From: an uncultured Methanosarcinales archaeon
GTDB lineage: Archaea > Nanobdellota > Nanobdellia > Woesearchaeales > JAGVZT01
DNA length: 64,000 nt
Reading direction: 5' to 3'
Assembly (NCBI GenBank): GCA_964354685.1
Contig: CAYHAM010000005.1
Span: 9,942-73,941 of the forward strand
The notes beneath the pieces were generated by a model, which had not been told where the DNA came from, did no database searches, and worked only from the letters and a program-made list of their open reading frames with translations. This document shows positions 6,956-38,975 of the stretch, one piece after another; position 1 is the stretch's first letter; every line of letters begins with the position of its first letter. Position numbers and translations under genes: made by a program.

Positions 6956-6959
6956 TAGA

Positions 6960-7661: not shown

Positions 7662-7703
7662 CTAGATTTTTTTATATCTTTTTTGTTATTTGGAAAAGAG
7701 AAA

Positions 7704-8855: not shown

Positions 8856-8864
8856 TATGTTATA

Positions 8865-9281: not shown

Positions 9282-9477
9282 TCTTATTATATTATTAATT
9301 CACTGATTTATATTAATAAAATTAATACTATCATTTTTATTGAGGGATATTAGTTGTAACTATTTAGGAATAAACAACAATGTTTTGTAAGAAACAAGGG
9401 TTAATTAACAGAAAAATTTATATATGTAGTATATAATTGGTTTAAATTAGTATAAAAACAAAAAAAAGGTTGATAAT

Positions 9478-9732: not shown

Positions 9733-9736
9733 TAGA

Positions 9737-10835: not shown

Positions 10836-11162
10836 ATGTATATTGATGAGTTTGAAAGCATGGTTAATGAAAAAGAGGTTGTGGATTTATTAAAGAAGAG
10901 CTTTGGTTCTAAAGCCAAGTTTAGGTTGATTGTTTTGGTTACATATTCACTTGAAAATCTTAATCATTCTCAGAAAACCTTGTTTGGTTATGCTTTAAAG
11001 GGCAGAACAGGTCAGAAAGGGTTTTTGGATAAACTAGATGGAGAGGCGGTTGGCAGGAACAATGTTCTGATTCCAGTTGATAATCTAACTCAGTTAAAGG
11101 AGTTTTTTGCAACATGGAATGTAAAGTATAATGTTAGAAAATTCATAGAATTAAAAGAATGA
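10836..11162 (+). CDS. Hypothetical protein (108 aa) translationally coupled to the 915-aa surface protein (ATGA overlap)
   Basis: ORF only. Stop/start overlap. Confidence 0.4.
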   Translation: MYIDEFESMVNEKEVVDLLKKSFGSKAKFRLIVLVTYSLENLNHSQKTLFGYALKGRTGQKGFLDKLDGEAVGRNNVLIPVDNLTQLKEFFATWNVKYNVRKFIELKE

Positions 11163-13906
11163 AAAGAACATATAAGAAAAGGAAGGAGAAGCATTTTTCG
11201 AACAACTTAGTTGCGTTGCTTGCAGTTGCCTTTGCAATTATCTCCTTGATTTGTAATATGGAGGTGTATAAAGGAACAGCGAAACTTATGCCTGTTGGAA
11301 GAGCAGTTGCTCAGGGCACAGTTAGTTTCAACATAGCAGGTTATCAACCAGTTCCTTTTGTTACTTACCCAAATGGGTGTGAGGTTGTGAATGGAACTAT
11401 TATGATAAATTCAACAGTGACTGATAAAGATGGTAATGACAGCATAGCTAATGTTAGCTTTTATTATTCAGGCGCGTTTAATGAATCTGGCCAAACATAT
11501 GTTGGTATACAAGTTTATGATGGGGATGTTTATTATGAGCAGAGCTGGAACACAAGCAATGTTTCAGATGGGATATACTACAAAATAAGGATTAATTCTG
11601 TTGACAATAAATCAATAACTGCTCAAGACAAGTCAAACAATTTCTTTGCAGTTAATAACATTGATGAGGTACCAGAGTGGGAGGAGTTCAAGTATGGTGT
11701 TTCAACAAATCTAAGCACGTTGAGCAAATGGTGGAATGTGAGCAATTTGCTGCTTGGTAATAATTATGGAATGATAAACTTCTCTAGCCAAACGCTTAAT
11801 GTGGATGGTGTTAATCTTTCAGCGTATATAGAGATAACTTTTGCAAAAATATTTTTGGATGATGATTACTTGCCATGTATGAGTGTTCCTGCTTACCTTC
11901 ACTTTTTTAATGTGAGCTTGACTGATCCTAGAATATTGAGGGATGGCGTGGAGTGTTCAGCACCTGCTTGTATCTTGATTTCAAATAATGGGAACGATGT
12001 TGTTTATAGGGTTTTAACCTTCTCAACATATGAGGTTTTTGATAATGCACAGCTTGAGATTTGGGATGTTACAGACAAAGGTGTTTATAATGGTAACCAA
12101 ACAAGGTATAAGAATGAGCAAACCGAGTTTTATGCAAATTTAACTTCAAATGGAACAGCAGTAAATGATAATTACACAAGCTGTTGGATAAGGTTCAACA
12201 TATCCGCAGATGAAACAGAATGGGAGGAGATGGAATTTAAGGGAAGCAGTTATCTTTATGAATCCCATCGAAAGTTTAATAATCCTGGTATCTACCCTTG
12301 GAAGGTTGTTTGTAATAACACTCAATCTGTGTATTTCAACTATACTAGAAATGATACTGTTAATATTTCTAACAGAGCTCCTGTTTTGACTTCTGCTTTA
12401 CCAAATATAACAATGCTGGAGGATAGGCAGCTTCTGTATGTTGATCTTGATGATTATTTTGAAGATCCTGATGGTGACACTATGACTTATAATAGTTCTT
12501 ATGTGCCAAATATAGTTATAACAATTGGAATAGGTAATATTGTTACTGTGGCTCCTGCTCAAAACTGGTATGGTAACAGGAGTTTTTTCATTAATGCAAT
12601 AGATGCATTCAACGCAACAACACAGAGTAATAGAATTTATATAACCGTAATCGATGTTCCAGAACCTTTACCAGAAACTGGTGCTGGCGGTGGTGGTGGT
12701 GGCGGAGGAGGCTATACTGAGACAGAATACATTGAAAGACCAGATTGTGTTGATAAGTGGAGGTGTTCATCATGGTCTGCTTGTGAGTTTAGATGGCCTG
12801 ATATTGAGGTTGATGAGATAAATGAGAATGATGGTATAAGAACAAGAAGTTGTGTTGATGTTAATAAGTGCAACTATTTTTGGAAGAAGCCCAATGAGAC
12901 AATGGATTGTTTTTATCAGCCAACATGCGATGATCATATCAAAAACCAAAAAGAGGAAAAAGTGGATTGCGGTGGGCCTAATTGCCCTGTTTGTCCAACA
13001 TGTGAGGATGGGGTTCAAAACCAGAATGAGACTGGCATGGATTGCGGTGGGCCTTGTAAGAGTTGTCCAAGCTGTTATGACGGTATACAAAACCAAGGTG
13101 AGGAAGGGGTTGATTGTGGTGGGCCTTGTAAGAGTTGTGCTTTGTTGGAAAAGCCAGAGCCTATTTTTGATTGGTTGATGATTGGATTGTTTGTTTTGAT
13201 GCTTTCGGTTTTGTTGTTTACAACATACATATTTGTTAGGCCTTACATTGTTAGGATAACCTTGAGTATAATGGGGCTAAAAGAGAGGATAAGGAGGAAA
13301 GAGGTGCCAACAAAGAGTTTGCTTGATTTAGAGTTAGACACATTGTTCAAGTTAGACAAACTAATCAAGATGTTAGAAAAGGGTGATCTAGATGATATAT
13401 CAAAACAATTCAATGCTGTTTTTAGAAGGTTTTTGAAAGAGGCGCTTAAAATAGAGTATGAGTTTACATATGAAGAGTTACAAGAGGAGATTAAGAAGCA
13501 GAATCTGCCTAGGTTATTAAAGATTGCTTTGAGTAATTATGTAAAAGAGCTCACTGAGATTCAGTATGGAAAGAGAAAACTAACAAAAGAATTGTTGAGT
13601 ATGGAGATTAAAAGAGCAAAGGAGCTTGTTGATTTGATTGTAAAAAATCTTCCAAAAGAGGTGGTGGCTGTAGAGAAAAAAGCTAAAGTGAGAGAATCTA
13701 GAGTTGATATAATAAGTGTGTATAAGCTAATTGTGGATGCAGAGAGGGCTTTGGCAAAGAAGGATATTGAGAAGGCAGGTAAGGTTTATAGTGAAATAGC
13801 CTCTGTTTATAAAAGACTACCTGATAAGCAAAAGAGGGAGATTTATCAAAAGGTATCAAAATTGGTGAAAGATATTGATGGTATGTCAAAGGATATGAAA
13901 AGATGA
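11159..13906 (+). CDS. Large surface glycoprotein (915 aa). Has LPETG-Gly9, three DCGGPC-x-C repeats, a TM helix and a ~225-aa cytoplasmic tail with the YEFTYEEL domain
   Basis: Signal/TM near the N-terminus and many sequons. Repeats QNQxExGxDCGGPCKSC occur three times. TM IGLFVLMLSVLLF. The tail is homologous to the N-terminus of the 18137 ORF. Confidence 0.55.
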   Translation: MKRTYKKRKEKHFSNNLVALLAVAFAIISLICNMEVYKGTAKLMPVGRAVAQGTVSFNIAGYQPVPFVTYPNGCEVVNGTIMINSTVTDKDGNDSIANVSFYYSGAFNESGQTYVGIQVYDGDVYYEQSWNTSNVSDGIYYKIRINSVDNKSITAQDKSNNFFAVNNIDEVPEWEEFKYGVSTNLSTLSKWWNVSNLLLGNNYGMINFSSQTLNVDGVNLSAYIEITFAKIFLDDDYLPCMSVPAYLHFFNVSLTDPRILRDGVECSAPACILISNNGNDVVYRVLTFSTYEVFDNAQLEIWDVTDKGVYNGNQTRYKNEQTEFYANLTSNGTAVNDNYTSCWIRFNISADETEWEEMEFKGSSYLYESHRKFNNPGIYPWKVVCNNTQSVYFNYTRNDTVNISNRAPVLTSALPNITMLEDRQLLYVDLDDYFEDPDGDTMTYNSSYVPNIVITIGIGNIVTVAPAQNWYGNRSFFINAIDAFNATTQSNRIYITVIDVPEPLPETGAGGGGGGGGGYTETEYIERPDCVDKWRCSSWSACEFRWPDIEVDEINENDGIRTRSCVDVNKCNYFWKKPNETMDCFYQPTCDDHIKNQKEEKVDCGGPNCPVCPTCEDGVQNQNETGMDCGGPCKSCPSCYDGIQNQGEEGVDCGGPCKSCALLEKPEPIFDWLMIGLFVLMLSVLLFTTYIFVRPYIVRITLSIMGLKERIRRKEVPTKSLLDLELDTLFKLDKLIKMLEKGDLDDISKQFNAVFRRFLKEALKIEYEFTYEELQEEIKKQNLPRLLKIALSNYVKELTEIQYGKRKLTKELLSMEIKRAKELVDLIVKNLPKEVVAVEKKAKVRESRVDIISVYKLIVDAERALAKKDIEKAGKVYSEIASVYKRLPDKQKREIYQKVSKLVKDIDGMSKDMKR

Positions 13907-18136: not shown

Positions 18137-19795
18137 TTATGTCAGTCGTGAGAGTTTAAGATCAATATCAATACCTGTTAGATCATAAGATATTCTCTTT
18201 GAGTCTTCGCTCTTGAGTCTTAGGTATTTTTTGATTTGAAGGGCTTTTGAGTATGTGTCCATTGCTGATGAATAATTTCCTTGGTTTATTAGGTGTTGGG
18301 TTGTTTGAATCAGGTTATCAAGGTCTTCAATTTGTAATTTTGAGGTTGGTTTTTTGATTGGTTGAGTGAGTTCTGTCTTTGTTGATTCTGATTTGGGTTT
18401 TGATATTAAAGTGGTTGTTTTTTCAGATGGGTTTGGTTGAGTTTGGATTTCGTGAGCATAAGATGAAACAAGAATAGACTTTGGTCTAAAAGAGGCGTCT
18501 CCTTTTTGGATTGATTCTAGTTCTAAGGAGGGTATGTTTTCTATTGTTGGTTGTTTTTCAAATTTGGCTTGCTTTGATGGTTGTTGAGGATAGAACTCTA
18601 GTTCTGGTTGTTCTGGTTTAAATTGAGTGGGAGCCTTTTTCTTCATTTCTAAATCAGGGATGACTGGTTTCTTCTTAATACGTGGTTTTAATGATTGTTG
18701 TACTTTTGGTTCACTTATTTTTGGTGTGACCATCTCAGGCAGAGAGTTAATATCTATTTTTGGAGGGGGTGGAGTAGGCATAAGTGGAGGTAGTTCCATT
18801 TCTTCAATGTGTTTTTTTGGTTTGAATAATGATTTCAAGAAAGATTTTTTTGTGGGTTGTTCTTCTTCTGATACAAGTTTCATTTCTTGAGATAGCTCTT
18901 CTTCTAATTCTAACCCAGGCATCGGAGGGGGTGGAGGTAGGTCCAACTCTGGTTGGGTTGTCGGCTTGGTTGTTGGTTCTGTTATTGGTTTTTCTATTGG
19001 CTCTGGCTCTTTTAATGAGTTGACTTCTTTTCTTAATTGTGTTATCTCTTTTTTGATTTGCCTTGCCTCAATAGGTGTAAGTGTATTGTATAGTGCATCT
19101 ATTTTTGATAGTTGTGATTCTGCTTTTGCAATGCGGTTGTTGCTTATATCCTCATAGCTTTCTGCCAACATACTATACAAAAAGGTTAATTTGTCTTGTG
19201 GTGTTTTTCTCAACCACTTTAATGTTAATGCTGATGTTAGGTTAAATTTGAGGTTGGTTATTGTTCTATTTAATTTTCCTTCAGATGGAGCCTTTTTCTT
19301 CAATTTGATTTTTGGTTTGGGAGTAGCAGTCTTTTTTATTCTTAATTTGACTAACAATCTAGAAAGCAAACCATGTTTTGTACTTGTTATAATAGCATGT
19401 TTCTCTTCTAAAACAAGGGGTATTAGGTTTTCAAACTTTTGAAGTTGTTGGTTTAATTCTTCTATGGTGTAGCCCTCTTGCTTAAACTCCATATTGGATA
19501 GATGCTTGAAAAATTCGGTGAGTTCTGATTTTAGCTCTGGGGAGAGTCTTCTATTCTCCATCTCTTTGACAAACTCTTCATAGGTGAAGTAATACCTGAT
19601 TTTAAGTAGTTTCATAAAGAAGAATCTGATAATTGCTGAGAATTCTGAAGAATGGTCTTTTTCAGGAGTGTCAGAGATCTGCTGTCTTAACTTTTGGAGT
19701 TTGTTTTTTGTTATCTCATCTACTCTTATTTCAGGTTCATTTTGTTTTTTGCGCTTAAACCTCTTTTTTAATCTTGATTTGATAGGAATAGCCAT
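18137..19795 (-). CDS. Pro/Lys-rich protein (552 aa) sharing the YxFTYEE domain with the cytoplasmic tail of 11159
   Basis: IRFFFMKLLKIRYYFTYEEF aligns with FRRFLKEALKIEYEFTYEEL. PPPPP and KPK low-complexity stretches. Confidence 0.45.
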   Translation of the reverse strand: MAIPIKSRLKKRFKRKKQNEPEIRVDEITKNKLQKLRQQISDTPEKDHSSEFSAIIRFFFMKLLKIRYYFTYEEFVKEMENRRLSPELKSELTEFFKHLSNMEFKQEGYTIEELNQQLQKFENLIPLVLEEKHAIITSTKHGLLSRLLVKLRIKKTATPKPKIKLKKKAPSEGKLNRTITNLKFNLTSALTLKWLRKTPQDKLTFLYSMLAESYEDISNNRIAKAESQLSKIDALYNTLTPIEARQIKKEITQLRKEVNSLKEPEPIEKPITEPTTKPTTQPELDLPPPPPMPGLELEEELSQEMKLVSEEEQPTKKSFLKSLFKPKKHIEEMELPPLMPTPPPPKIDINSLPEMVTPKISEPKVQQSLKPRIKKKPVIPDLEMKKKAPTQFKPEQPELEFYPQQPSKQAKFEKQPTIENIPSLELESIQKGDASFRPKSILVSSYAHEIQTQPNPSEKTTTLISKPKSESTKTELTQPIKKPTSKLQIEDLDNLIQTTQHLINQGNYSSAMDTYSKALQIKKYLRLKSEDSKRISYDLTGIDIDLKLSRLT

Positions 19796-19895: not shown

Positions 19896-20909
19896 TTGAT
19901 AGAATATGGCATCATGGCTGTTGGTGTAGAGGCTGATTTTGAAAAAAAGGTGAAGGATTATAAAAGTTATATTCTCAAGATAGAGAAAGAGATATCAAAG
20001 GTTGTTATTGGCCAGCATGATGTTGTAAGGGGTTTTCTGAGGGCGATGATTTGTAATGGTCATGTGCTTGTTGAGGGTGTGCCTGGAATTGGGAAGACAT
20101 TGCTTGTTAACACACTGTCAACAATAACTGGGTGCAAGTTTTCAAGAATTCAGTTTACACCAGATTTGTTGCCATCTGACATTGTTGGTTTGACAAGCTA
20201 TCAAAGGGAGGAGGGTTTTTACACAATAAAAGGACCAATATTCTCAAACTTTGTGCTAGCAGACGAGATTAACAGAGCCCCTCCCAAGGTTCAGAGTGCG
20301 CTGCTTGAGGCAATGCAGGAGCGTCAGGCAACTATTGGTAAAGAAACTTTTGAGATAACTCCTCCTTTTTTTGTTCTTGCAACTCAAAACCCAATTGAGC
20401 ATGCTGGTACTTACCCATTGCCAGAGGCACAGATTGATAGGTTCTTGTTTAAGATGTTGATGGGCTATCCTACAATAGAGGAGGAACAGAATATACTAAC
20501 AACAAATATACAGATAAAGAAATTCAATGAGTATGATCTAAATAAGATAATATCTCCAGAAGAAATAATAAGGATGCAACGTGAGATGCAGAAGGTTTAT
20601 CTTGATCCTAAGCTTGAAAAGTATATTGTTGCCTTGGTTGATTGTACAAGGCATCCAGACAAGTACAAGTTAAAGTTGAGCAAATATATTGAATATGGTT
20701 CATCACCAAGGGCTTCTATTGGTTTGTACATTGGATCAAAGGCAGAGGCTTTGATGAATGCCAAGGCCTTTGTTACACCACAGGACATTAAGAAGATAGC
20801 AAAAGATGTGCTAAGGCATAGGATAATTCTCAACTATGAGGGGCAGGCTGAGGGCATTTCCGCTGATCAGATTATAGAAGAGATCCTTGCTAGGGTTCCG
20901 GTGCCGTAA
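19896..20909 (+). CDS. MoxR-family AAA+ ATPase
   Basis: Walker A GVPGIGKT, Walker B LADEINRA, MoxR-type length. Confidence 0.8.
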   Translation: MIEYGIMAVGVEADFEKKVKDYKSYILKIEKEISKVVIGQHDVVRGFLRAMICNGHVLVEGVPGIGKTLLVNTLSTITGCKFSRIQFTPDLLPSDIVGLTSYQREEGFYTIKGPIFSNFVLADEINRAPPKVQSALLEAMQERQATIGKETFEITPPFFVLATQNPIEHAGTYPLPEAQIDRFLFKMLMGYPTIEEEQNILTTNIQIKKFNEYDLNKIISPEEIIRMQREMQKVYLDPKLEKYIVALVDCTRHPDKYKLKLSKYIEYGSSPRASIGLYIGSKAEALMNAKAFVTPQDIKKIAKDVLRHRIILNYEGQAEGISADQIIEEILARVPVP

Positions 20910-21806
20910 ATGAGAGTTAAGGAGTTGAGGCTTAATCTGAAGCCTTTGATCAAGAAGTTAGAAATTGGGCTAAAGAGGGGCCAAAGTGAAGAAACATTGA
21001 CATCTAGTTTTAAGAGTGTTTTCAAGGGCCGAGGGCTTGAGTTCGAGGGTTTTAGGGTTTATACAGCTGATGATGATGCAAAGGAGATTGATTGGAAGGC
21101 TTCTTTGAGGGCACAAGAGCTTTTGATCAGGGTTCTAACAGAAGAGCGAAATATTCATGTTTTTTTTCTTCTAGATGTGAGTGATAGTATGATATTTTCA
21201 TCCACTGATAAGTTAAAGTGTGAGTATGCAGCTGAGTTTATAGCAACCCTTGCCTATGGTGTTATTGAGGCTGGTGATAGTGTTGGGCTCTGCATATTTA
21301 ATGATAAGGTTGTTCAGCTAATTCAAGGAAATATTGGGATGAATCAGTTTTACAAGGTTACAAAGAATCTGAGTGATCCTAAGCACTATGGAGGTGGCTT
21401 TGATTTGAATTTTATTTTGAAGTATGCCACTAGTTTTTTGAAGAGGAACACAGTGGTTTTCATTGTGTCTGATTTCATTGGATTGAAGCCTGGTTGGAAG
21501 CAGCACTTGGAGATAATGTCAAAGAAGTTTGAGTTGGTTGGGATTATGATTAGGGATCCTCGGGATAATAAGTTGCCAAAGGATGCTGGGCAGTTTGTGC
21601 TGGGTGATCCCTATTCAAACGCAGACATTCTTGTAGACGTGAAACTAATAAAGGATAAGTATGAGGAGTATGCAAACCAGCAGATTGCAGAGGTCAAGAA
21701 TGCTTTCCAGGACTTGGGTGCAGACTTTTTGTTGGTGAATACAGATGAGAGTTTTGTTTATCCAATTCTAGAGCTTTTTAATAGGAGGAAGCAGAGATGG
21801 AGATAA
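20910..21806 (+). CDS. DUF58-family protein (MoxR partner)
   Basis: Position immediately after MoxR. FKGRGLEFEGFRVY motif typical of DUF58. Confidence 0.6.
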   Translation: MRVKELRLNLKPLIKKLEIGLKRGQSEETLTSSFKSVFKGRGLEFEGFRVYTADDDAKEIDWKASLRAQELLIRVLTEERNIHVFFLLDVSDSMIFSSTDKLKCEYAAEFIATLAYGVIEAGDSVGLCIFNDKVVQLIQGNIGMNQFYKVTKNLSDPKHYGGGFDLNFILKYATSFLKRNTVVFIVSDFIGLKPGWKQHLEIMSKKFELVGIMIRDPRDNKLPKDAGQFVLGDPYSNADILVDVKLIKDKYEEYANQQIAEVKNAFQDLGADFLLVNTDESFVYPILELFNRRKQRWR

Positions 21807-22732
21807 CTTTTCTTAGGCCTTTGTATTTAACATTCTTGATTAGCGTACCTTTTTTTGTTGTGATGCACTTCTTGATATTGCAGCATGTGAAGAGGCGTGC
21901 ATTGAAGTTTGCCAACTTTGAGGTTATTGAGAGAGCAACTGGTGGACAAATATTGAATAAGAATGTTGTTATCTTGATCATTAGGTTGTGCGCTCTTGTT
22001 TTGTTCACTTTTTCAGCAGCTGGAACAATATTTTGGTATGAGGGGCAAACCACTAATTTTGATTATATTATAACACTTGATGCTTCGAGTAGTATGCTTG
22101 CAGACGATTTTAGTCCAAACCGTATTGAAGTAGCTAAGCAAGCTGCTATTGAATTTGTTGAGATGTTGCCTCTCCAAACCAATATTGGTATTGTTAGTTT
22201 TGCTGGAACAAGTTTTGTTGAGCAACCTCTTACTGATGATCATGGTCTTGTTAAGGACAAAATAAATGAGATTGGTGTGAAGCCTGTTGGAGGTACTGAT
22301 TTGGGAGAGGCTTTGGTAACTGCATCTAATATGCTGTTGTCAGAAGAGGATAAAGCGCGATCAATAATTCTTTTGACAGATGGACAGAGCAATGTTGGAA
22401 CAGATCCTATTTTTGGTGCAGAGTATGCGAATGAGAATCAGATAACTGTTTTTACAATAGGTATAGCGACCTTAGAAGGAGGAAAGTTTTCTAAGGTTGA
22501 GGCTATTTCAAGGCTTGATGAGGACACATTAAAACTGATTGCTCAGAACACTGGTGGAGTGTATTATAGGGCAGAGAACAGGGAAGAGCTGCAGCAGGCA
22601 TATGTGAATATTGCTGCCTCAACAAAGCAGAAGATTTCTGTTAATTTGCAATTGCCATTGTTGTTGATTGCTTTGTTCCTCTTGTTTGTTGAATGGGGTT
22701 TGATTAATACGAAGTATAGGACATTACCTTAG
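21797..22732 (+). CDS. von Willebrand factor A domain membrane protein (BatA-like)
   Basis: N-terminal TM helices. VWA MIDAS motif DASSSM and GGTDLGEAL. Confidence 0.7.
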   Translation: MEITFLRPLYLTFLISVPFFVVMHFLILQHVKRRALKFANFEVIERATGGQILNKNVVILIIRLCALVLFTFSAAGTIFWYEGQTTNFDYIITLDASSSMLADDFSPNRIEVAKQAAIEFVEMLPLQTNIGIVSFAGTSFVEQPLTDDHGLVKDKINEIGVKPVGGTDLGEALVTASNMLLSEEDKARSIILLTDGQSNVGTDPIFGAEYANENQITVFTIGIATLEGGKFSKVEAISRLDEDTLKLIAQNTGGVYYRAENREELQQAYVNIAASTKQKISVNLQLPLLLIALFLLFVEWGLINTKYRTLP

Positions 22733-26963: not shown

Positions 26964-27076
26964 AAAATGAAAAAGCCTCCGGAGGGAGTTGAACCCTCGA
27001 CCTGCGGATCACTTGCATAAGGGCTACAAGTTTCGGCTTTAGAAATCCGCCGCAATAGCCACTATGCTACGGAGGC
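26964..27076 (-). tRNA. tRNA-Arg (anticodon TCT) with a canonical-position intron (~30 nt)
   Basis: Reverse complement has GCCTCCG/CGGAGGC acceptor, GCGGA-TTTCTA-(intron)-A-TCCGC, and T-arm GAGGG-TTCAACT-CCCTC. Confidence 0.7.
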
Positions 27077-29555: not shown

Positions 29556-30107
29556 TTACAGCATACTCAACACCCTCTCAGCAAAGTGTGTGAAGAGGAA
29601 TAGGTTTATAAGCATGTTTAATGTGAAAGAAATAATACTATTTATTGGATTAAAGCCTAAAGCTAATATGTAAGTGGTATGAATAACTAAGTTAAAGACA
29701 AGTGTTAATATTATGCCTGCTATTGATACATTCAAACCCAAAAGAAGAAAAGAGAGCAAACAGATTATGAAGTAGGCAGCTATTTGAATAAACATTGGGA
29801 TGCATAGGCGTCCATTGAGAATTGAGCCAATAATTAACATGGTTGTTGCTGCAAGCATTGCAAACAATGGAGAAAAGGCAAAGCAAAATATTATTGTTAT
29901 GAATGTTATGAGCTCAAATCCCAATGATAGTTGAATGAACCTTTTCCAAAATATTGAGATTATTCCAATTGAGATTAGTAACAATGTTAGGATTATTGCT
30001 TTAAATCTTTGGAAGAGTATTAAAATAATGAGAATTGATACAAGTAGAATAACATACTTCTTGATGTAATTTTTAGCATCCTGTGATAATACGTATTTGT
30101 TTATCAT
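29556..30107 (-). CDS. Hydrophobic membrane protein (183 aa)
   Basis: About 6 TM helices. Confidence 0.35.
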   Translation of the reverse strand: MINKYVLSQDAKNYIKKYVILLVSILIILILFQRFKAIILTLLLISIGIISIFWKRFIQLSLGFELITFITIIFCFAFSPLFAMLAATTMLIIGSILNGRLCIPMFIQIAAYFIICLLSFLLLGLNVSIAGIILTLVFNLVIHTTYILALGFNPINSIISFTLNMLINLFLFTHFAERVLSML

Positions 30108-30329: not shown

Positions 30330-30413
30330 CGCCCCGGGCCAGGTTTGAACTGGCGACCTTGCGGTTTCTAGGCAAGCTAACAGCCGCACGCTCCACCACT
30401 AAGCTACCGGGGC
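30330..30413 (-). tRNA. tRNA-Asn (anticodon GTT) with a 12-nt intron at 37/38
   Basis: GCCCCGG/CCGGGGC acceptor. TGCGG-CTGTTA(intron)A-CCGCA. T-arm GCCAG-TTCAAAC-CTGGC. Confidence 0.65.
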
Positions 30414-30696: not shown

Positions 30697-31245
30697 ATGG
30701 TGAGTGAGAAGCAAAAGGAGTTTAATAAGTATATACACAGTTACTTGAAAAAGCTTCCAAAGGATAGGTATAAGCGTTCTGGAAGTGATTTTGTGCCTAA
30801 GAAAAAGCCTATGGAAGAGGCCGAGGTTCTTGAAGAAAAAGAGTTGGAAAGAGCAGATAAAGATGTTGCGAAGAGGGGTGTTTTCTCAAGGGTTTATGAT
30901 TGGGTTTTTGGTTCTAGGGCAAAGGTTGTTACAGAAGAGGATTTCGGTGATGAGGTTGAACACATAGAAGAAAAGCCTGATATCAAGGAGAAGAAGAGAA
31001 GATCCTACCTTAATTCAATAATGAAAACAGTGGTGAGAGAGAAGAGGACTCAAGTTGATTCTGAAGAACCAGAGACAGTTATAAAAAAGGTTGTTTTGGT
31101 TAGGCCAGAGATTGAAAGGGATATGAAGGTTGTTTTAAGCCTAGTGGATTCTATGATAGTGAAGATAAACACATATGACAGGGCCAAATTTCTAAAGTCT
31201 CAGGAGTATAAGGTTTATCAGGACTTAAGAAAAAGGTATAGGTAG
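30697..31245 (+). CDS. Highly charged Lys/Glu-rich hypothetical protein (182 aa)
   Basis: ORF only. Confidence 0.35.
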   Translation: MVSEKQKEFNKYIHSYLKKLPKDRYKRSGSDFVPKKKPMEEAEVLEEKELERADKDVAKRGVFSRVYDWVFGSRAKVVTEEDFGDEVEHIEEKPDIKEKKRRSYLNSIMKTVVREKRTQVDSEEPETVIKKVVLVRPEIERDMKVVLSLVDSMIVKINTYDRAKFLKSQEYKVYQDLRKRYR

Positions 31246-31280: not shown

Positions 31281-32870
31281 ATGATTGAAAAAAAGAGGGT
31301 TTTGCTGTTGTTGTTGATATTTGTGTTTTTTGTTCCTACTGTTTTGGCAGCTTCTTATGATAAATGGGTTGTTGCTGGTGAAGATATAAGCTTTGATAAT
31401 ACAGTTTTCACAACTGCTATTAACCCAAGGTGGGATATTGCAACAATTGGTTTTGATTCTGAGCTTTTTCTTATTGGAAAGGGTGAGTGTCAGGCTAGTG
31501 CATTGTATAGGGTTTGTTTTAATGATACTAGGTTTGATGTGGTTAAGGGTTATGGGGTGTATAATGTAACAACAGATACTATGACACCTGAGCTTCATAT
31601 AATAATAAGTACTCTTACACCCACTGTTGAGATAACAAGGACTATTGATAAGACACAGCTTTTGATAAATGATGTGGCAACAATATCTGTTAAGGTTGCG
31701 AATGAGGGTGAGAAAAAGGTTTATGACCTCGAGTATATAGATGTTATTCCTAATGAATTCACAATAATAGAAAGGAAGGGTGTTGTTTCTGATGGTAATG
31801 CAATTAAGTGGATTTGGCCATCCCTATCAGGAGAGACTAGTTTTTCTTATAAGATCAAGCTTATTAAGCCTATTAATGTGAGTTGGAAAGCAAGTCTGAG
31901 TTATGTTTTTGAATCAAAAAGTGTTTTTAAAAATACAAGTAGTATAACTGTAAAGAAGATTGAAGCCACTAATCCTCTAAATGTTGAGAGATCATTATCT
32001 CCTACCAATATTAAGGTTGGTGAGGATACATTATATATAATAACTTTAAAAAACACTGATGAGAAGAATGATGTTGAAGTAGAGAGCTTTGTTGTTAGTA
32101 TTCCAAAAAAGGTTGAAATAAAAGGCTATGGTGAGCTTAAAAAAGATCAAAATGATTTAAGCTGGAGCGGAGTAATGGGTCCTGCTACCAACAAAACTTT
32201 TGAGGTTGAGTTAAAGTGTGACTACACTGGGGAATATAAAATAAATATTAGTTTAGAGAATTCTTTTTACAATGAGATAGAGAAGAAAACCCATACTAAA
32301 TTGCAGAACTATTCAAATACATTAAAATCTGATTTTACAAGGCTAGAGCCCTCTGTAAAGTTTATGTTTGACAAAAAAACACTGAATTATGATGATGAGT
32401 CCAATATAAGGGCATTTATTGAGAACAAAGATAGCAAGATTCCATTGTTTGAGGTTGAGTTTGAAGTTAAGAGTGAATTGTTTGATGATTTTGAGAACAC
32501 TTTGGAACACATTTTGCCTGGACAAAAGGTTGAAGCCTTTTATTATCCTTTTAGGACACCATCTTTGTTTGAGGATAAGGTGTACAAGGTAAAGTTTAGT
32601 GGTAGGTATAGAACAGTGTATTATGAGTATTTTAATTTTAGCTCTGAAGGTAGCATAACTGTAAAAAAGGATCCAGACGCGGTTTTTGAAGATGAGGAAC
32701 AACAAACCATTGAAGAAGAACAAGAGGTTGAGCAGACAAGCAACGAGTCTTTGCAAGAGGATATCGTTGTTGAGAAGAATGAATCAGGGGAGCCATTGAT
32801 ACAAAAGAAGGAGAATTTTTTTGTCAAGTTTTTCAAGGCATTGGCTAGTCTAATAAAAGATTTGTTCTAA
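31281..32870 (+). CDS. Secreted protein with DUF11/CARDB-like beta-sandwich repeats and acidic C-terminus
   Basis: Signal peptide. Repeated ..VANEGEKKVYD.. and ITLKNTDEKN.. modules typical of conserved-repeat-domain adhesins. Confidence 0.45.
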   Translation: MIEKKRVLLLLLIFVFFVPTVLAASYDKWVVAGEDISFDNTVFTTAINPRWDIATIGFDSELFLIGKGECQASALYRVCFNDTRFDVVKGYGVYNVTTDTMTPELHIIISTLTPTVEITRTIDKTQLLINDVATISVKVANEGEKKVYDLEYIDVIPNEFTIIERKGVVSDGNAIKWIWPSLSGETSFSYKIKLIKPINVSWKASLSYVFESKSVFKNTSSITVKKIEATNPLNVERSLSPTNIKVGEDTLYIITLKNTDEKNDVEVESFVVSIPKKVEIKGYGELKKDQNDLSWSGVMGPATNKTFEVELKCDYTGEYKINISLENSFYNEIEKKTHTKLQNYSNTLKSDFTRLEPSVKFMFDKKTLNYDDESNIRAFIENKDSKIPLFEVEFEVKSELFDDFENTLEHILPGQKVEAFYYPFRTPSLFEDKVYKVKFSGRYRTVYYEYFNFSSEGSITVKKDPDAVFEDEEQQTIEEEQEVEQTSNESLQEDIVVEKNESGEPLIQKKENFFVKFFKALASLIKDLF

Positions 32871-33901
32871 AAGAATAAACCTCCAAAAATATTTTTAAGG
32901 AAAACAGATAAAAAGGTGTATGAGAATATTGCTGTTACCAAATAGATTGGGATGTATTTTAATCCGCCTTTTATACTACCTGTGGTTATTTCAGAAACAA
33001 TCATTGATGAGCATACTGCAACAACACCAACTGCCACCCTAGAGAAAAGAACAAAGTCATCTATTTTTATTGAGAGGCTTTCAAAACTTAATGGCAAGTC
33101 CACTGCAGATGTTGTTAGAACGCCCATCTTGCCAGAGAGTGACTGGAGTATAAGAAGGAGCTGGTGGGAGAGTGCAAATAGTGCTGGGGCTATGATTATG
33201 ACTATAAAGGAGATGAATATCACATAGGTCATGTTTGTTGCAACAATATCCTGTTTTAGTAGTTTTGTTTCTATTATGTTGTCCACAACTTTGTCTATTA
33301 GTGTGGCCATTTCACCTCCACCTTTTGCGCCTTCGATTATTAGATCAAATGCTCTTCTTGTCATGGGTGAATCATATTTTAGGGTGAATTCTCTCAAAGC
33401 CTCTTCAACATCTTCACCTGTTGCAACCTTTTTTGAGGTAATCTGTATCTCTTTTGACAAAACCCCAAACTCTGGTTTTATTGCCTCCCATAGGGCTTTG
33501 TCAAGGCTCATTCCTCCTTTTAGGTTTTCAGATACAAAGCTTAGAAAGCTATCAAGCACATCTTCGATTTTTTTGGTTCTATTATATATAACAACATCAA
33601 GGTATGAGTAGATGGCGAGTATAAAAAAAGCACTTATTCCTATCTGTATCATGAACCAAACAGCAAAGGTTATTAACAAGAAGAAAAGCATATTGATTTC
33701 TTTTGCTTGAAGTAGGGGATAGACTAGGTAGAAATAAATAAGGTATGTAACTATAAGACTAACATAAAAGAGCAATCCAAAAAATTTGTAAGGAACTTCA
33801 GTTATGCCTGCTTTTAGTAGATACTTTCTTAGGTGGGGTCTGATTCTCTCTGGAACAAATGCCCTTCCAAACTCCTCTAAGAATAATATTTTGAGTTTCA
33901 T
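32867..33901 (-). CDS. T2SSF-domain membrane protein, TadC/FlaJ-like (second half of a split pair)
   Basis: GspF-like soluble domain (LDKALWEAI..ATLIDKV) flanked by TM helices. Confidence 0.55.
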   Translation of the reverse strand: MKLKILFLEEFGRAFVPERIRPHLRKYLLKAGITEVPYKFFGLLFYVSLIVTYLIYFYLVYPLLQAKEINMLFFLLITFAVWFMIQIGISAFFILAIYSYLDVVIYNRTKKIEDVLDSFLSFVSENLKGGMSLDKALWEAIKPEFGVLSKEIQITSKKVATGEDVEEALREFTLKYDSPMTRRAFDLIIEGAKGGGEMATLIDKVVDNIIETKLLKQDIVATNMTYVIFISFIVIIIAPALFALSHQLLLILQSLSGKMGVLTTSAVDLPLSFESLSIKIDDFVLFSRVAVGVVAVCSSMIVSEITTGSIKGGLKYIPIYLVTAIFSYTFLSVFLKNIFGGLFF

Positions 33902-34716
33902 ATGTCCACCATTGGCCTTGAAGACCTTATTATTGATATAAAGAATAGTTGTATAAGTGTTATAAAAAATAAGAAAATGAACAAGGTTGAGAGATCAAGT
34001 TGGAACTTCATTAGGCCTGCAATAATTATGAACATTGCTATTCCTAGTGAGGGCATTACACAAGCAATTATAAGGTAGAATAGTATGATGGAGTTGAGTT
34101 TTCTTGAGTAGGATTTTATTTCTATTTGCTGTTCTCTTGTTATTTCATCAAGAAGCTTTTTTAGAGATGTTGAGATATCTACTCCTGTCTTTAATGAATT
34201 TAGGATCTGTCTTAGTACCAACTTAAATGAACGTGAGGTGTTGTATTCAATGGCATCTTCTAGGGCTTGTTCTATTGGTTTTCCAAGGTTTATGTCGTCA
34301 ACTATCTCCTTGAAGAATTTACCACCAACGCCGTAGCCTTTTGATGCATCTGTGAGTGCATTTAGCAGGGGTATACCAGAGTCAATCTTTATTAGCAAAT
34401 AGCGTGTTGCAAATAGTACATCTTTGTTGATTTCTCTTTCTCTTCTTCTTATGTAAACCTTTGGGGTGTTCATAAAGAAGGTGTAGAGTAAGATAAATAA
34501 GACAGGAAATGACAATATTATGTAGCCTAGTGGGATTCCCCTTTTTGAGAATAGTAGAAAAAGCAAAAAAGCGAGACCAATTGAGGAGTATAATGAGACG
34601 ATAATGTTTCTTTTTATGAATTTTTTTGGTTTTATATCTAGGTGAGCTGCCTTGAGCATTAGCTTGAGCTTTCTGCTAGGCTTGAATAGCGCATCAAAAG
34701 GTTCTAGGTCTCTCAT
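33898..34716 (-). CDS. T2SSF-domain membrane protein, TadB/FlaJ-like (first half of a split pair)
   Basis: GspF-like domain (IPLLNALTDA..LKKLLDEITREQQ) plus TM helices. 4-nt overlap with the downstream gene. Confidence 0.55.
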   Translation of the reverse strand: MRDLEPFDALFKPSRKLKLMLKAAHLDIKPKKFIKRNIIVSLYSSIGLAFLLFLLFSKRGIPLGYIILSFPVLFILLYTFFMNTPKVYIRRREREINKDVLFATRYLLIKIDSGIPLLNALTDASKGYGVGGKFFKEIVDDINLGKPIEQALEDAIEYNTSRSFKLVLRQILNSLKTGVDISTSLKKLLDEITREQQIEIKSYSRKLNSIILFYLIIACVMPSLGIAMFIIIAGLMKFQLDLSTLFIFLFFITLIQLFFISIIRSSRPMVDI

Positions 34717-34717
34717 C

Positions 34718-36166
34718 TTAGATCTTTATCATAAGCCTTCCTGAGTAGTATTTTGCAAAGAACAAACCAAGCTTGTGGATATCAGTAACGTTGTTTTTTA
34801 CAAGTTGTTGGAGTATTGATTTCTTTTCTTCAAGGTCGTTTATTATCTCTTGTGAGGTTAGTCCAGTGTAAAGTGTTAGTGTATCTAACAGTCGTGTCCA
34901 TTCCCTTATTTTGTTGAATTGGTCTGTTTTGTGGTCATATTGATAAACCACTCTTGGGTCACCTGTTTCAGTTATTTCTGCGAACTGGAATGTTCTTCTT
35001 ATACCTGTTCTGCGATTTCTTGTTTGTACTAGTATTAGTGCAACTGCTGGCAGCATCATCTTTGGAATATTTATAGGAGGATTTGTTAGTCTAATCATTG
35101 TTTCTCGAGCATCATTGGCGTGTATTGTTGTGTATACACTATGGCCTGTGTGCATTGCCTCAAAGAGCACTTCTGCCTCGCGTTGTCTTCTTATTTCTCC
35201 AACAACAATTCTGTCAGGTCTCATTCTAAGGGAGTTAACAACAAGGTCAAGCATTGTAACTTCTCCTTTGCCTTCTGGGTTTGGTATCCTGGTTTCCATA
35301 GGTACCCAATGGAGGTTTTCTGGTAGTATTATCTCACGTGTATCTTCTATGCTTATTATTCTCTGGTTTGGTGGGAAGAAGTTACAAACCACGTTCAGGG
35401 TTGAGGTCTTGCCAGTGCCTGTTCCTCCTGCTATTATCATGGAGAGCTCGTTTTGAACTGCCATCCATGTTAAAGCAGCTGCTTCATAGGTTATTGTTTT
35501 GTTGTTGATGAAGTCTGTTATTGTCCATGGCTTTTCAGCAAACTTCCTTATTGTGATTGTGTTTCCCTTTGTTGAGATGGGATATAGAGTTGCATTCACT
35601 CTGTCTCCAGTAGCAAGATTTGCATCAAGTAATGGTTTTAGCAGTGTTATTTCTTTCTGGATGTCTCTACCAATCATGGTTGAGTAGTGTCTTATCCTTG
35701 CTTCTGATGGAATTCTAATATTTGTTTTTAGCCAGCCGTGTTTCTTGTGATAGACCCACAAAGGCTCTTTTGAATTGTTTACAACAATCTCTTCTAGTTG
35801 CCTGTCTTTTAGTAGTATCTCTATGTTACCCATTCCAATGTTCTCTCTCATCACATATGCGACCAATAAGTCTGAGTTTCTCTTGTCAATGTTTGGGAAG
35901 TATTTTTTTATCAGCAATTGTATCTCTTTTTGGAATCTTTGCTGAATGGCTTCTCTGCCACCAGATTCTGAAACTTGAATAGTTCCTGCTGCAACATTTG
36001 TTACAAACTCCTCTTTTAGCTTTTCTAAAATTATGTTGGTGATGGGGCTTATGTTTAAGATGGATATTGAGTATAAGGGTACAAAATCTTTTTCTTTGAG
36101 TGTTATCTCTACATTAACCATCATTTGTCCAACTTCTATTTTGTACGAATCTAGCTTTGTATCCAT
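34718..36166 (-). CDS. Type II/IV secretion ATPase, archaeal FlaI/TadA (GspE/VirB11) family
   Basis: Walker A IIAGGTGTGKTS. His-box region HTGHSVYTTIHA. Asp box. Confidence 0.8.
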   Translation of the reverse strand: MDTKLDSYKIEVGQMMVNVEITLKEKDFVPLYSISILNISPITNIILEKLKEEFVTNVAAGTIQVSESGGREAIQQRFQKEIQLLIKKYFPNIDKRNSDLLVAYVMRENIGMGNIEILLKDRQLEEIVVNNSKEPLWVYHKKHGWLKTNIRIPSEARIRHYSTMIGRDIQKEITLLKPLLDANLATGDRVNATLYPISTKGNTITIRKFAEKPWTITDFINNKTITYEAAALTWMAVQNELSMIIAGGTGTGKTSTLNVVCNFFPPNQRIISIEDTREIILPENLHWVPMETRIPNPEGKGEVTMLDLVVNSLRMRPDRIVVGEIRRQREAEVLFEAMHTGHSVYTTIHANDARETMIRLTNPPINIPKMMLPAVALILVQTRNRRTGIRRTFQFAEITETGDPRVVYQYDHKTDQFNKIREWTRLLDTLTLYTGLTSQEIINDLEEKKSILQQLVKNNVTDIHKLGLFFAKYYSGRLMIKI

Positions 36167-36167
36167 T

Positions 36168-38975
36168 TTATGCTGTTATGGGAGTATTTAACCTCTGTGC
36201 CTTATTTTCCTTTTTTGCAGATGTTATTTGCATCAAGATTTGCTTTGCCTCTGTGCTGTCTGGGTTTATTTCTAGAATCGAGTTTAGAGTTGATATAGCT
36301 TCTTGAAGGCGGTTTTGTTCAGCAAACTCTTTTGCTTTTTTTAGTTTTATATTTGTGAGCATATTTAGTCTCTCTTTTTTTCTGTCAACTGATGGTTGTG
36401 TTTTTGTTTCTAGTTTTGGTTCTTGTACTTGAGTTAAGGTTGTTGGTTCTTCTAGCTTTTTGTGCTCTGCTTTGATTTCCTTGAGCATTTCCCTCAACTC
36501 GTCTTTGTCTTGCTCTCTTGTGGAGTTATGCAACATTTTTTGTACATCCTTGAAGTTCGGGTCTTGTTTTTTTATTTCTCTAAATAGCTTTGTAGCATGG
36601 TAATAGTCTTTTTGTTCATAGTATTTTTTTGCATCTTTGTAAAGATCTTCTAAACTCTTTGTGTGGATTTCTCTTATTGGTGCTTGCTTGGTTTGGTGTT
36701 CTATCTTTTTTGTTTGCTTAATTACCATGGGTGTTTGTTTTGTTCTCTTTGGATACAATTGTAGGGGTGTTTCAACCCTTGTTAGGGTTCTGGTTTCTTG
36801 TTGTGATTTTACATTGGATATGCTTTTCTGGTATATATCTCTAGCTTCTAGAGGTTTGTTCTGATATTCTATCATGGATTGTCCTGATTTTGCTATTGGG
36901 TTGTTGGGCTCAAGATTCAATACTCTTTTAAATAGGTCTTGTGCAAGGTCAAGGTTGTTTTTGTTTAGATGATACTCTGCTTGGGATAGAAGATTTTTTA
37001 CAAGTTGTGGTGTTGAAGTTTTTGGCATCACAGGTTGGCTTCTGGAAAGTGGTTGAGGGGTTGTGTAGTAGTCAAGCTTTTGTCTGACAAAAGTGAATAG
37101 GTTTTCATCACCAACACAGACGCTCATGAGGGTGTTGTAAAGGTTGCTTGTTTGTTTTAACAAGAGGTTAAGCTCCATTGGATTGTTTTTGTTTTCATCA
37201 AGCTGCTTTGCTTTTTTGTACATATCTACCAAGTTTTGGAGCTTTGAAACCTCTTGTCTGAGCTTTGTATTCTGCTCCACGAGCGAAAATGGCAGATTAC
37301 CATAAATTTGTTTTATTTTTTCATACTCTGATTCAAATATTTCAAATTGTGATTCTTCTATGAATTGGTGCGCTTTGACTATCAAATGAACGAGTTGCTT
37401 GTATTTTTTGTCAGCAGCCTCATCAAATTCCTTTAAAACAGATTCATCTGATTTTAATAAGATTTCTCTGTACAAATCAAGTATCTGGACCCTTAAAGCA
37501 GTGTTGTGTTGCAAGAAGCCTTGTGGTAGAGAGGTATAGTTGTGTTCAATCTCACGGTGTATGCTTTCTGCAATCTCTGTTTCACCGATTTTCAAATGCT
37601 CTTTTGCTTTTTTTATCATAGAGTTTATCTTTTGTGTCCCCACCCCTAAGGTTGTTATGTGTTGTTGGTTTAATCTTCTTGTGATCTCTTTGTGAAGGTC
37701 TAGAATTTGTTCCTCAAGGTCAACTTTTGTTTTCAAAAATCCTGCTGGTAATTCAGTGTATAATCCTTTTAGTTGTTGGTATTGTTTGTCTGCTTCCTCA
37801 ACAAGATTTTTGTTTAGCAAATCTTTGGTTGAGATTAGCAATGATTTTATCTTTTGTGTGTTTTCTGCCACTTTCTTTGCAGAGAGTTCCTGTTTGTTTG
37901 AAACAAGCACAAGTGAAAGTTGTAATATTTCTCTCTCAAGCTGAGGATGGTCTTGTAAAAAGCCTTTTGGTATTTTGTTGTAGATCTTCCTAAGTTCTTC
38001 ATAGTTTTCAAAAGCCTTGTCAATGTGTCTTTCGTTTAGATCTGTTTTTATCTCCTGTACCAATATTTCTATTTCACTTGTTTTTGTTTCTATGTATCTT
38101 GTTATAAGGTGATTTTTATGTTTTACAAGAGTTTGGTAGGTGTCTAGAATATTGTTTTGGAGATGTGTTTTTTGTATCACAAAACCGTCTGGGAACCTTG
38201 AGTAGAGCTCTTCAACCTCTTTGAAGATTGATTCTGCTTTTTTGATATCCTTTTTTATTAATGAGAACTTTATTCTCCTTAACTCTGAGCTTATTAATTT
38301 TGATAGAAGATTTGCTTGCTTGGCAGATGCTCTATGCAGATTTATTGACATATCCTTGTTGAGCTTTGTTAGGTTTGTTTCTAGTTCCTTTTTCATTTCT
38401 ATAAAATTGGTTGGCAAGCCTTCATAGTTTTGTTTTATCATAGAATAAACATGTTGTGCACTTTCAAAATCACCTTTTTCAATGAATTCGTAAGCTTTTT
38501 CTAACAGATCATTCAACCCTTTTGTTAATTCTAGGTTTATCTCTATTGGCTTGAGTTCTGGCTTTGATTTTTTGAATCTTTTTGTAGAGATTTTTTCTGT
38601 TGTCTCGAGTTCTGTTTTTTCTTCAGCTTTTGGCTCAGCTGTTTTTTCAACAAGGTAAGGTGTTGTGAGTTTATATTTCACTGAAATAATTCCCTCCTCT
38701 TCTAAAAACCCTGCCCATGCCTCAATCGTTGCTAAACTAACTTTAAGTTGCTTTGCTGCATCACTCATAGAAATCTCTTTTTTTGTTTTTACAAGATCAA
38801 CTAGATCATCAACATCAGTTGTGATAACAAGATCAGAAGTGATTGTATGTAGAATTTCATTTGGTTTAGGCTCTTCCATTTTCGCTAACGCTCTTTTTAT
38901 TTCCACTATACTAGTATCTATATTGTATATAAGAACCACACTAGTATATAAAAGTTTTGATGGTTGATATAGCAA
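36168..38975 (-). CDS. Winged-helix N-terminus + long coiled-coil protein with six or more ~65-aa Y..LP.GF repeats and C-terminal TPR-like region (pilus-operon lead gene)
   Basis: wHTH-like AAKQLKVSLATIEAWAGFLEEEGIISV. Repeats (LYTELPAGFL, NYTSLPQGFL, IYGNLPFSLV, NYEGLPTNFI). TPR-like AEYHLNKNNLDLAQDLF. Confidence 0.45.
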   Translation of the reverse strand: MLYQPSKLLYTSVVLIYNIDTSIVEIKRALAKMEEPKPNEILHTITSDLVITTDVDDLVDLVKTKKEISMSDAAKQLKVSLATIEAWAGFLEEEGIISVKYKLTTPYLVEKTAEPKAEEKTELETTEKISTKRFKKSKPELKPIEINLELTKGLNDLLEKAYEFIEKGDFESAQHVYSMIKQNYEGLPTNFIEMKKELETNLTKLNKDMSINLHRASAKQANLLSKLISSELRRIKFSLIKKDIKKAESIFKEVEELYSRFPDGFVIQKTHLQNNILDTYQTLVKHKNHLITRYIETKTSEIEILVQEIKTDLNERHIDKAFENYEELRKIYNKIPKGFLQDHPQLEREILQLSLVLVSNKQELSAKKVAENTQKIKSLLISTKDLLNKNLVEEADKQYQQLKGLYTELPAGFLKTKVDLEEQILDLHKEITRRLNQQHITTLGVGTQKINSMIKKAKEHLKIGETEIAESIHREIEHNYTSLPQGFLQHNTALRVQILDLYREILLKSDESVLKEFDEAADKKYKQLVHLIVKAHQFIEESQFEIFESEYEKIKQIYGNLPFSLVEQNTKLRQEVSKLQNLVDMYKKAKQLDENKNNPMELNLLLKQTSNLYNTLMSVCVGDENLFTFVRQKLDYYTTPQPLSRSQPVMPKTSTPQLVKNLLSQAEYHLNKNNLDLAQDLFKRVLNLEPNNPIAKSGQSMIEYQNKPLEARDIYQKSISNVKSQQETRTLTRVETPLQLYPKRTKQTPMVIKQTKKIEHQTKQAPIREIHTKSLEDLYKDAKKYYEQKDYYHATKLFREIKKQDPNFKDVQKMLHNSTREQDKDELREMLKEIKAEHKKLEEPTTLTQVQEPKLETKTQPSVDRKKERLNMLTNIKLKKAKEFAEQNRLQEAISTLNSILEINPDSTEAKQILMQITSAKKENKAQRLNTPITA

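Follow-up and report, generated by a model that had tools for sequence, protein, structure and literature searches.

The ATPase and platform core of type IV filament machines is well known, and what positions, regulates or anchors that core in the tiny cells of DPANN archaea is not. These archaea are thought to be dependent on contact with a host cell, for which type IV pili are prime candidates; in bacteria of the Candidate Phyla Radiation (CPR), which are analogous to DPANN archaea, type IV pili drive episymbiosis (PMC11623550). The question is raised by a 64,000-nucleotide (nt) stretch of contig CAYHAM010000005.1 (assembly GCA_964354685.1; the whole stretch is hereafter called the window), in which an assembly ATPase gene and two platform genes are preceded by a gene for a large protein of 903 or 935 amino acids (aa): what is this protein, and what does it do at the head of a pilus operon? 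The answer that we favor, with a rough probability of 0.55, is that the four genes encode the Epd/Tad-like type IV pilus core of a Woesearchaeota-type DPANN archaeon together with a protein that would act as a docking scaffold or hub for this core, rather than as a transcription factor. The genes concerned are as follows.

36168-38975 (935 aa, from a TTG start) or 36168-38879 (903 aa, from an ATG start), minus strand: gene for the large accessory protein (listing of open reading frames)
34718-36166, minus strand: type IV filament assembly ATPase of the FlaI/TadA/CpaF superfamily, 482 aa (Pfam T2SSE, NCBIfam, PDB)
33898-34716, minus strand: platform protein 1, one T2SSF domain, 272 aa (Pfam T2SSF)
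32867-33901, minus strand: platform protein 2, one T2SSF domain, 344 aa (Pfam T2SSF, NCBIfam ArlJ)
31281-32870, plus strand: DUF11-like secreted surface protein, 529 aa (Pfam DUF11; Sec-type signal)

The initial annotation, made from the letters and the open reading frames (ORFs), had described four minus-strand genes with junctions of 1 to 4 nt and a convergently encoded DUF11-like secreted protein, and both descriptions agree with the ORF listing: neighboring genes of the block are 1 nt apart at the first two junctions and overlap by 4 nt at the third, and the convergent gene, whose product matches Pfam DUF11 (4.6e-09), overlaps the gene for platform protein 2 by 4 nt. The true start of the large gene is likely to be the ATG at 38879, which gives a product of 903 aa, because both the alignment of homologues and the sequence point there; residue numbers are given in the 935-aa frame throughout. 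Candidate promoter elements lie upstream of this start.

38920-38960, minus strand: elements (AAAACTTTTATATAC and TTATATAC) resembling a B recognition element (BRE) and a TATA box (inferred from sequence)

Inspection by eye of 40 related loci showed elements resembling AAAnCTTTAWAWA in most of them, 25-90 nt 5' of the large gene. The TATA-like box 5' of this gene is surrounded by ACTAGT-containing direct or inverted repeats in the window and in L003 (the L numbers designate related loci), which is the closest relative with context; these repeats are not kept in more distant loci.

The comparison with relatives drew on 41 species-representative loci from GTDB, 7 of which are truncated by contig ends inside or just past the large gene, leaving 34 complete loci; a further 5 metagenomic loci were retrieved with the large protein as seed and 3 loci with the ATPase as seed, which brings the number of testable loci to 42. 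In all 42, a member of the large-protein family is encoded directly 5' of the ATPase gene, in the same orientation, and the platform genes follow. The distance from its stop to the ATPase start is 1 nt in the window, L003 and L050, and 3 nt in L001, 5 nt in L006, 6 nt in L005, 10 nt in L007, 17 nt in L049 and 61 nt in L051, so that the gap of 1-17 nt in eight of the nine annotated loci is compatible with co-translation, and the large protein is apparently co-expressed with the ATPase. What lies outside the module varies from locus to locus (rpS7, rpS3Ae, pilins, carbonic anhydrase, histidyl-tRNA synthetase and pseudouridine synthase), and because these flanking genes differ, the four-gene block is the conserved unit. 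Within it, amino acid identity across the related loci is 55-82% for the ATPase, 35-75% for the platform proteins and 20-66% for the large protein. Whether an unrelated protein occupies the first position in orthologous operons was also checked, and the protein there is homologous to that of the window. Judged from this synteny, the large protein is a lineage-specific and obligatory partner of the pilus motor with which it is strictly co-inherited.

The lineage in question is that of Woesearchaeota-type archaea. Assembly labels name 31 of the 41 GTDB loci as Woesearchaeota, Nanoarchaeota or Nanobdellota; the others are labeled 'Methanosarcinales' (8 loci, of which 7 are third-party (TPA) assemblies), 'archaeon' (1) and 'Aminicenantes' (1), and because of the common synteny and an ATPase identity of 54-74%, these labels probably misstate the true lineage. 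The window itself has a GC content of ~35% and contains archaeal housekeeping genes, such as those for a family B DNA polymerase, an XPD-type helicase, TruD and rpS7, and intron-bearing tRNAs; it is accordingly placed as a piece of a Woesearchaeales-like DPANN genome.

The family to which the large protein belongs is extensive. An exhaustive profile search returned 1708 cluster representatives (clusters at 50% identity) at E<=1e-3, 750 at E<=1e-10 and 164 at E<=1e-30, whereas a word-indexed search gave just 12 homologues and thus understated the family. Members range from 600 to 1260 aa and keep the N-terminal winged helix with the sequence TIEAWAxFLEEE, while the linker, the number of repeats and the tail vary, the tail consisting of tetratricopeptide repeats (TPRs), being proline-rich or being absent. 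The conserved core of the protein falls outside every Pfam and NCBIfam family, and a search of PDB sequences with the family profile gave nothing meaningful (the best match was malate synthase, E 0.002). The description of the 935-aa protein as unusual was supported; it belongs to no Pfam or NCBIfam family and has no PDB relative by sequence or, as described below, by fold. The Joint Genome Institute (JGI) name of one homologue (P0010), 'flagellar motor component MotA', was rejected, as it lacks any domain support.

The large protein contains no transmembrane segment (its maximum 19-residue Kyte-Doolittle hydrophobicity is 0.88) and is predicted to be cytoplasmic and soluble. An AlphaFold2 model of its full length, built from a 13-sequence alignment with a mean predicted local distance difference test (pLDDT) score of 77, divides it into three parts.

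38640-38828, minus strand: winged-helix domain, residues 50-112 (AlphaFold2, Foldseek)
37056-38549, minus strand: six tandem ~74-aa repeats, residues ~143-640 (repeat hidden Markov model, AlphaFold2)
36192-37007, minus strand: C-terminal tail with three TPR-like helical islands on disordered linkers (Pfam TPR_14, TPR_19 and TPR_16; AlphaFold2)

The winged helix-turn-helix domain that had been read from the sequence was recovered by both the model and Foldseek. Its modeled topology is helix-strand-helix-helix-strand-strand (helices 54-65, 70-77 and 81-93; strands 67-69, 97-102 and 105-110), and in Foldseek the N-terminal domain matched winged helices of the ArsR/MarR type, namely NolR, CadC and HlyU, with a probability of 1.0 and E values of ~0.07-0.1. 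Matches to NCBIfam Sul12a and to Pfam helix-turn-helix families were weak, and none of the latter reached its threshold. According to the alignment, conservation within the protein is highest in this domain, which is nearly invariant across homologues, with invariant columns at T53, D56, L58, A73, E85, W87, F90, L91, Y101, T105 and P106. Its isoelectric point is 4.5-5.0 in 11 of 13 members, and three or four acidic residues are included in the helix that would normally read DNA (H3), TIEAWAxFLEEEG.

A disordered linker (residues 113-148 in the model) leads from the winged helix to the repeats. The Y..LP.GF repeat noticed in the initial annotation is present in six copies, each detected by the repeat hidden Markov model (HMM) at E 1e-20 to 1e-24, with its proline at residues 187, 262, 336, 410, 484 and 562 and therefore a period of 74-78 aa; homologues have five to eight copies. 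That annotation's term 'coiled-coil' was imprecise, because the model shows helical repeats with alternating long and short helices: each unit consists of a ~50-residue helix and a ~16-residue helix, the latter ending in the conserved LPxGF turn. In the full model this region has a pLDDT of 85-92, and a sub-model of three repeats reaches 90.8. When this sub-model was compared with the PDB by Foldseek, nothing was found at E<=0.001 (best E 0.04, template-modeling (TM) score <=0.34), and the full model retrieved only generic TPR proteins at TM scores below 0.1; Pfam matches of the central repeats to SbsC_spectrin-like, Spectrin_7 and BBS2_hp were all under threshold. In the tail, TPR_14 scored 35.4 bits against a threshold of 23.5 and TPR_19 scored 27 against 25, and the model places helices at 657-706, 775-842 and 863-928 with pLDDT below 50 between them. 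The alignment confines this TPR tail to the closest homologues, and distant members are without it.

How might such a protein serve a pilus motor? By homology, a hexameric ATPase of the FlaI/TadA type would dock beneath a platform made of two paralogous single-T2SSF proteins, a fissioned counterpart of FlaJ/PilC, and this machine, powered by ATP, would lift class-III-processed pilins from the membrane into a filament. We infer that the winged helix of the large protein would be a protein-docking module instead of a DNA-binding regulator, for which the candidate targets are the N-domain of the ATPase or the basic cytoplasmic tails at the N-termini of the platform proteins. The role of the repeats and TPRs would be to scaffold or position further factors at the motor or to recruit them to it. 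Several features favor this role: the winged helix is acidic, including its H3 sequence; the protein appears to be co-expressed with the ATPase; and it is long and variable in repeat number, often with TPR or disordered tails, like hub proteins. The platform proteins are plausible partners because the N-termini of both are rich in lysine and arginine and strongly basic. The large protein is probably a new pilus accessory component.

Comparable components are known in other systems. FimV/HubP in bacteria, ArlX/FlaX in the crenarchaeal archaellum and the coiled-coil protein arCOG07564 of haloarchaeal clade 4F are large, fast-evolving and mostly helical proteins that are encoded with, or act on, a type IV filament motor, and the C-terminus of FimV bears TPRs on acidic, disordered linkers. 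The large protein is likened to FimV/HubP and ArlX as a motor hub or scaffold, and to arCOG07564 by description; no relatedness is implied, as no sequence or fold similarity to FimV/HubP or ArlX was detected in Pfam, NCBIfam, PDB or Foldseek searches. In addition, FimV and ArlX are membrane-anchored, whereas the large protein has no transmembrane segment.

A number of observations weigh against a docking scaffold. The fold of the winged helix is nearest to that of DNA-binding regulators of the ArsR/MarR type, the domain is neutral or basic in 2 of the 13 members, the position of the gene at the head of the operon would suit an autoregulator, and the argument from charge to protein binding is an indirect one. 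Furthermore, the window holds no pilin, prepilin peptidase or FlaH/KaiC-type ATPase, so that the function of the machine depends on genes elsewhere.

A rival explanation is that the large protein is a transcription factor, whose winged helix would bind its own promoter or those of pilins and whose repeats and TPRs would oligomerize or sense a ligand, in the manner of RRNPP regulators or MalT. This explanation, the main alternative, is unlikely in our estimation. It draws on the Foldseek placement of the N-terminal domain with NolR, CadC and HlyU, on the first position in an operon with its own BRE/TATA element, on the ACTAGT-containing repeats by the TATA box of the window and L003, and on similarity of the repeat sub-model to the TPR domains of Rap, NprR, PlcR and MalT, but these last matches are weak and not significant (E 0.16-1.2, TM score ~0.2). 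Moreover, the helix in the DNA-reading position is nearly invariant and has an acidic and hydrophobic character, the net charge of the domain is negative in 11 of 13 members, and an inspection by eye of 40 upstream regions, without a formal motif search, revealed no family-wide operator-like motif besides BRE/TATA. The gap of 1-17 nt to the ATPase gene in eight of nine annotated loci suggests near-stoichiometric expression, which would be unusual for a regulator, and a length of 600-1260 aa with a variable number of repeats fits a structural protein better.

As for the machine itself, the ATPase matches Pfam T2SSE (8.6e-38) and, among PDB sequences, A. fulgidus GspE (2oap, 1.4e-66), FlaI (5e-49) and CpaF (3e-45); it scores 261 bits with the NCBIfam FlaI model (cut-off 550) and 191 bits with the TadA model, and falls under the equivalog cut-offs of FlaI, TadA and BasE alike. 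Each platform protein has a single T2SSF domain (2.4e-14 and 9.6e-13 for platform proteins 1 and 2), and the two are paralogues (28% identity, E 2e-6), the second of which aligns with the C-terminal half of ArlJ/FlaJ (positions 201-463 of 465 of NCBIfam ArlJ, E 2e-9). The initial assignment to a Tad-like type IV pilus core therefore stands as Tad/Epd-like, on the ATPase and two platform genes: by gene content, the core belongs among the Epd/Tad-like type IV filament machines of archaea. Archaellum parts (ArlH/FlaH, ArlF/G, archaellins, ArlX or ArlCDE) were found neither in the window nor in the related loci.

Among the known systems closest to the module is the Epd pilus of Methanococcus maripaludis, or system 1 (clade 1 of Makarova 2016; 'Epd-like' of Denise 2019), which has already been reported in DPANN archaea. 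The two share a FlaI-type ATPase, two contiguous single-T2SSF genes and, here in the related loci, class III pilins with KGQ or KAQ followed by a hydrophobic segment. In contrast to Epd and system 1, the operon of the module has no dedicated EppA-type peptidase or FlaH-like ATPase, the major pilins of the relatives (135-212 aa) are not short and Flp/EpdE-like lacking a globular domain, and a large winged-helix repeat gene has not been described there. The related loci with the ATPase, two platform genes, a DUF11-like protein and a pilin also match subsystem 4A of DPANN archaea, for which accessory genes 3' of the platform gene and a PilY-like adhesin are described (10.64898/2026.04.22.720090); an upstream cytoplasmic protein with a winged helix or helical repeats finds no mention in the main text of that preprint, nor does the winged-helix repeat protein in the archaeal type IV pilus surveys searched. 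With bacterial Tad/Flp systems (TadA/CpaF, TadB, TadC, TadZ, TadD), the module shares the order ATPase-platform-platform, single T2SSF domains and an ATPase homologous to CpaF (3e-45), but it is without a secretin, a ParA-like TadZ/CpaE ATPase and short Flp-type pilins; the TPR-bearing TadD of Tad, as a lipoprotein of the outer membrane, cannot be compared with the cytoplasmic large protein.

The absence of a prepilin peptidase and of a class III-signal pilin from the window, already noted in the initial annotation, was borne out by further searches. No class III pilin came to light in the 64 kb, either by a FlaFind-like scan or by tblastn with 12 queries (pilins and pilin-like proteins encoded in related loci), no Peptidase_A24 was found by Pfam among the window ORFs scanned, and tblastn of the window with the peptidase of L050 and with the KaiC-like protein of L003 was empty, the latter search having been made for KaiC/FlaH-like ATPases. 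Some related loci contain these missing parts. Class III pilins, with M-K-K-[KR]-[AG]-Q followed by AAMEFLMTYGWAILVV..., are encoded directly 3' of the platform genes in 14 loci; the pilin is of the QAAMEFLMTYGW type, the major pilin candidates have 135-212 aa as given above, and two to four minor-pilin-like genes often follow, whose products have KAQ before ASVEYLL..., KAQ before TWSLDVMVA... or KKG before YFFTLDAF.... A Peptidase_A24 gene is located 3 kb 5' of the module in L050, and KaiC-like genes lie 3-7 kb from it in L003 and L006; in none of the loci does the module itself include a secondary ATPase (TadZ or FlaH/KaiC-like). Thus, the pilins and the prepilin peptidase of the genome represented by the window are probably encoded outside the window. 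In these close relatives, a trio of pilin-like genes and a KaiC/FlaH-like ATPase gene (PF06745, 9.6e-63) occupy 849-7011 of L003 and 2271-3083 of L006, at a distance of 3-9 kb to the module, and neither has a counterpart in the window.

Could the module instead be another machine derived from type IV filaments, such as a bindosome-like surface assembly or a device for secretion or DNA transfer, with the large protein as its adaptor? This is quite improbable. It would be consistent with an ATPase under the equivalog cut-offs of all three models, with the many loci, including the window, that have no adjacent pilins, and with the recurrent association of the module with large secreted DUF11-like proteins. 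However, the conserved major-pilin-like gene and several minor-pilin-like genes after the platform genes in 14 related loci are the standard signature of a filament, and the loci showed neither DNA-processing genes nor substrate-binding proteins bearing class III signals.

An extension of the docking-scaffold reading is suggested by two other genes of the window. A single copy of the ~74-aa LP-turn repeat occurs in the cytoplasmic tail (aa ~861-913, E 1.6e-9) of a 915-aa surface protein with immunoglobulin-like (Ig) domains, encoded at 11159-13906, and another (aa ~226-280, E 1e-5) in a 552-aa low-complexity protein encoded at 18137-19795; a 'Y.FTYEE' segment is also common to these two proteins. 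The winged-helix repeat protein might accordingly be imagined as the core of a hitherto unseen cytoplasmic scaffold of Woesearchaeota that physically couples the pilus motor to other envelope proteins, in a repeat-mediated network organizing an attachment organelle for episymbiosis. We consider this idea highly speculative and would give it little credence, because searching for homologues of the 915-aa protein's cytoplasmic tail found nothing and a scan of 704 kb of related loci with the repeat HMM revealed no further carriers outside the family, so that the idea could not be extended.

The split platform had been regarded as the atypical feature of this locus, on the view that archaeal systems usually have a single fused platform protein, and this must be corrected. 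A platform split into two single-T2SSF genes is the defining trait of the archaeal Epd-like clade and of bacterial Tad (Denise et al. 2019, PMC6668835), clade 1 and many loci of clade 2 have two tadC genes (Makarova et al. 2016, PMC4858521), TadB and TadC are drawn in a DPANN island (Makarova et al. 2019, PMC6393860, Fig. 2 legend), and DPANN system 1 and subsystem 4A have two platform genes (10.64898/2026.04.22.720090). A check for a frameshift gave two genes in every relative: the pair was annotated as separate genes of 266-274 aa and 338-376 aa in 9 of 9 annotated related loci, down to 35% identity, the platform proteins gave two consecutive tblastn matches 3' of the ATPase in 34 of 34 complete GTDB loci, and both genes are kept in all 42 related loci with enough DNA. 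That the pair arose artefactually, from a frameshift in a single FlaJ-like gene or as a pseudogene, as their 4-nt overlap and a summed length roughly equal to that of FlaJ might suggest, is practically out of the question in view of these 9 annotated and 34 GTDB loci, the normality of ATGA overlaps as operon junctions and the published fission of the Epd/Tad platform (PMC6668835). The split platform is neither an artefact nor unusual; it is an already published state.

The novelty of the locus therefore lies in the large protein and not in the split platform, which is a known feature. With hundreds of sequence clusters, no annotation and no structural precedent, this protein is a concrete and testable candidate for a lineage-specific accessory of the motor. 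Gene content, domain identities, strict synteny and the pilins of relatives were observed directly; physical contact of the protein with the motor, its scaffold role and a function of the pilus in attachment to host cells are proposals.

Beside the module, the window contains genes that recur near it in the relatives. The DUF11-like protein begins with a Sec-type signal (N-terminus MIEKKRVLLLLLIFVFFVPTVLA followed by AS), and its homologues adjoin the module in nine further distinct loci (L003/L004, L008, L009, L018, L030, L033, L034, L035 and L043); in L050, a DUF11-domain gene is located between the platform genes and the pilin. The initial annotation had proposed it as the fibre or an adhesin. 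Because its signal is of the Sec type and not of class III, and because related loci carry canonical pilins, it is unlikely to be the fibre, and a surface or adhesin role is the more plausible part of the proposal; it is probably a recurrent surface or adhesin accessory rather than a pilin. Two further genes lie near it.

30697-31245, plus strand: highly charged protein, 182 aa (homologues; no Pfam or NCBIfam match)
29556-30107, minus strand: multi-pass membrane protein (tm183), 183 aa (homologues; no Pfam or NCBIfam match)

Homologues of the 182-aa protein adjoin the DUF11-like gene in L003/L004, L008 and L009, and L010 gave a weak partial match to it and no DUF11-like match; the gene may pair with the DUF11-like gene, and its link to the pilus appears weak. 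Homologues of the 183-aa membrane protein are encoded 1-2 kb past the platform genes in L005, L025, L040 and L041, and it may be an unrecognized component of the system or a case of conserved synteny only. As a candidate prepilin peptidase, tm183 was rejected, since it has no A24 match in Pfam or NCBIfam and no GxGD-like motif in its sequence.

Farther away, a duplicated cassette of surface-protein genes occupies 4117-10441. It comprises three paralogues of 232-242 aa (5544-6242, 6936-7661 and 9713-10441), two of which are preceded by an identical 84-aa ORF (6701-6955 and 9478-9732), with C-terminally anchored CARDB/DUF11-like proteins (4117-5316 and 7683-8855) and a 138-aa protein (8865-9281) interleaved. 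The 84-aa and ~235-aa proteins had been put forward as pilin candidates, and this was not upheld: the N-termini of the cassette proteins are signal anchors without the [KR][GA] cleavage motif of class III, no Pfam family was matched by the scanned ORFs of 232, 84 and 138 aa, and by tblastn the pilins of the relatives match nothing in the window.

Two minor observations concern the rest of the window. A Bat-like operon of MoxR (AAA_3), DUF58 and VWA genes at 19896-22732 is the divergent neighbor of the 552-aa repeat-containing protein. Finally, the tRNA gene at 30330-30413, to which ARAGORN assigned the four-base anticodon gtta and the type '???', and the 103-nt tRNA gene at 26974-27076, which was found only by Rfam, are probably intron-containing archaeal tRNAs.

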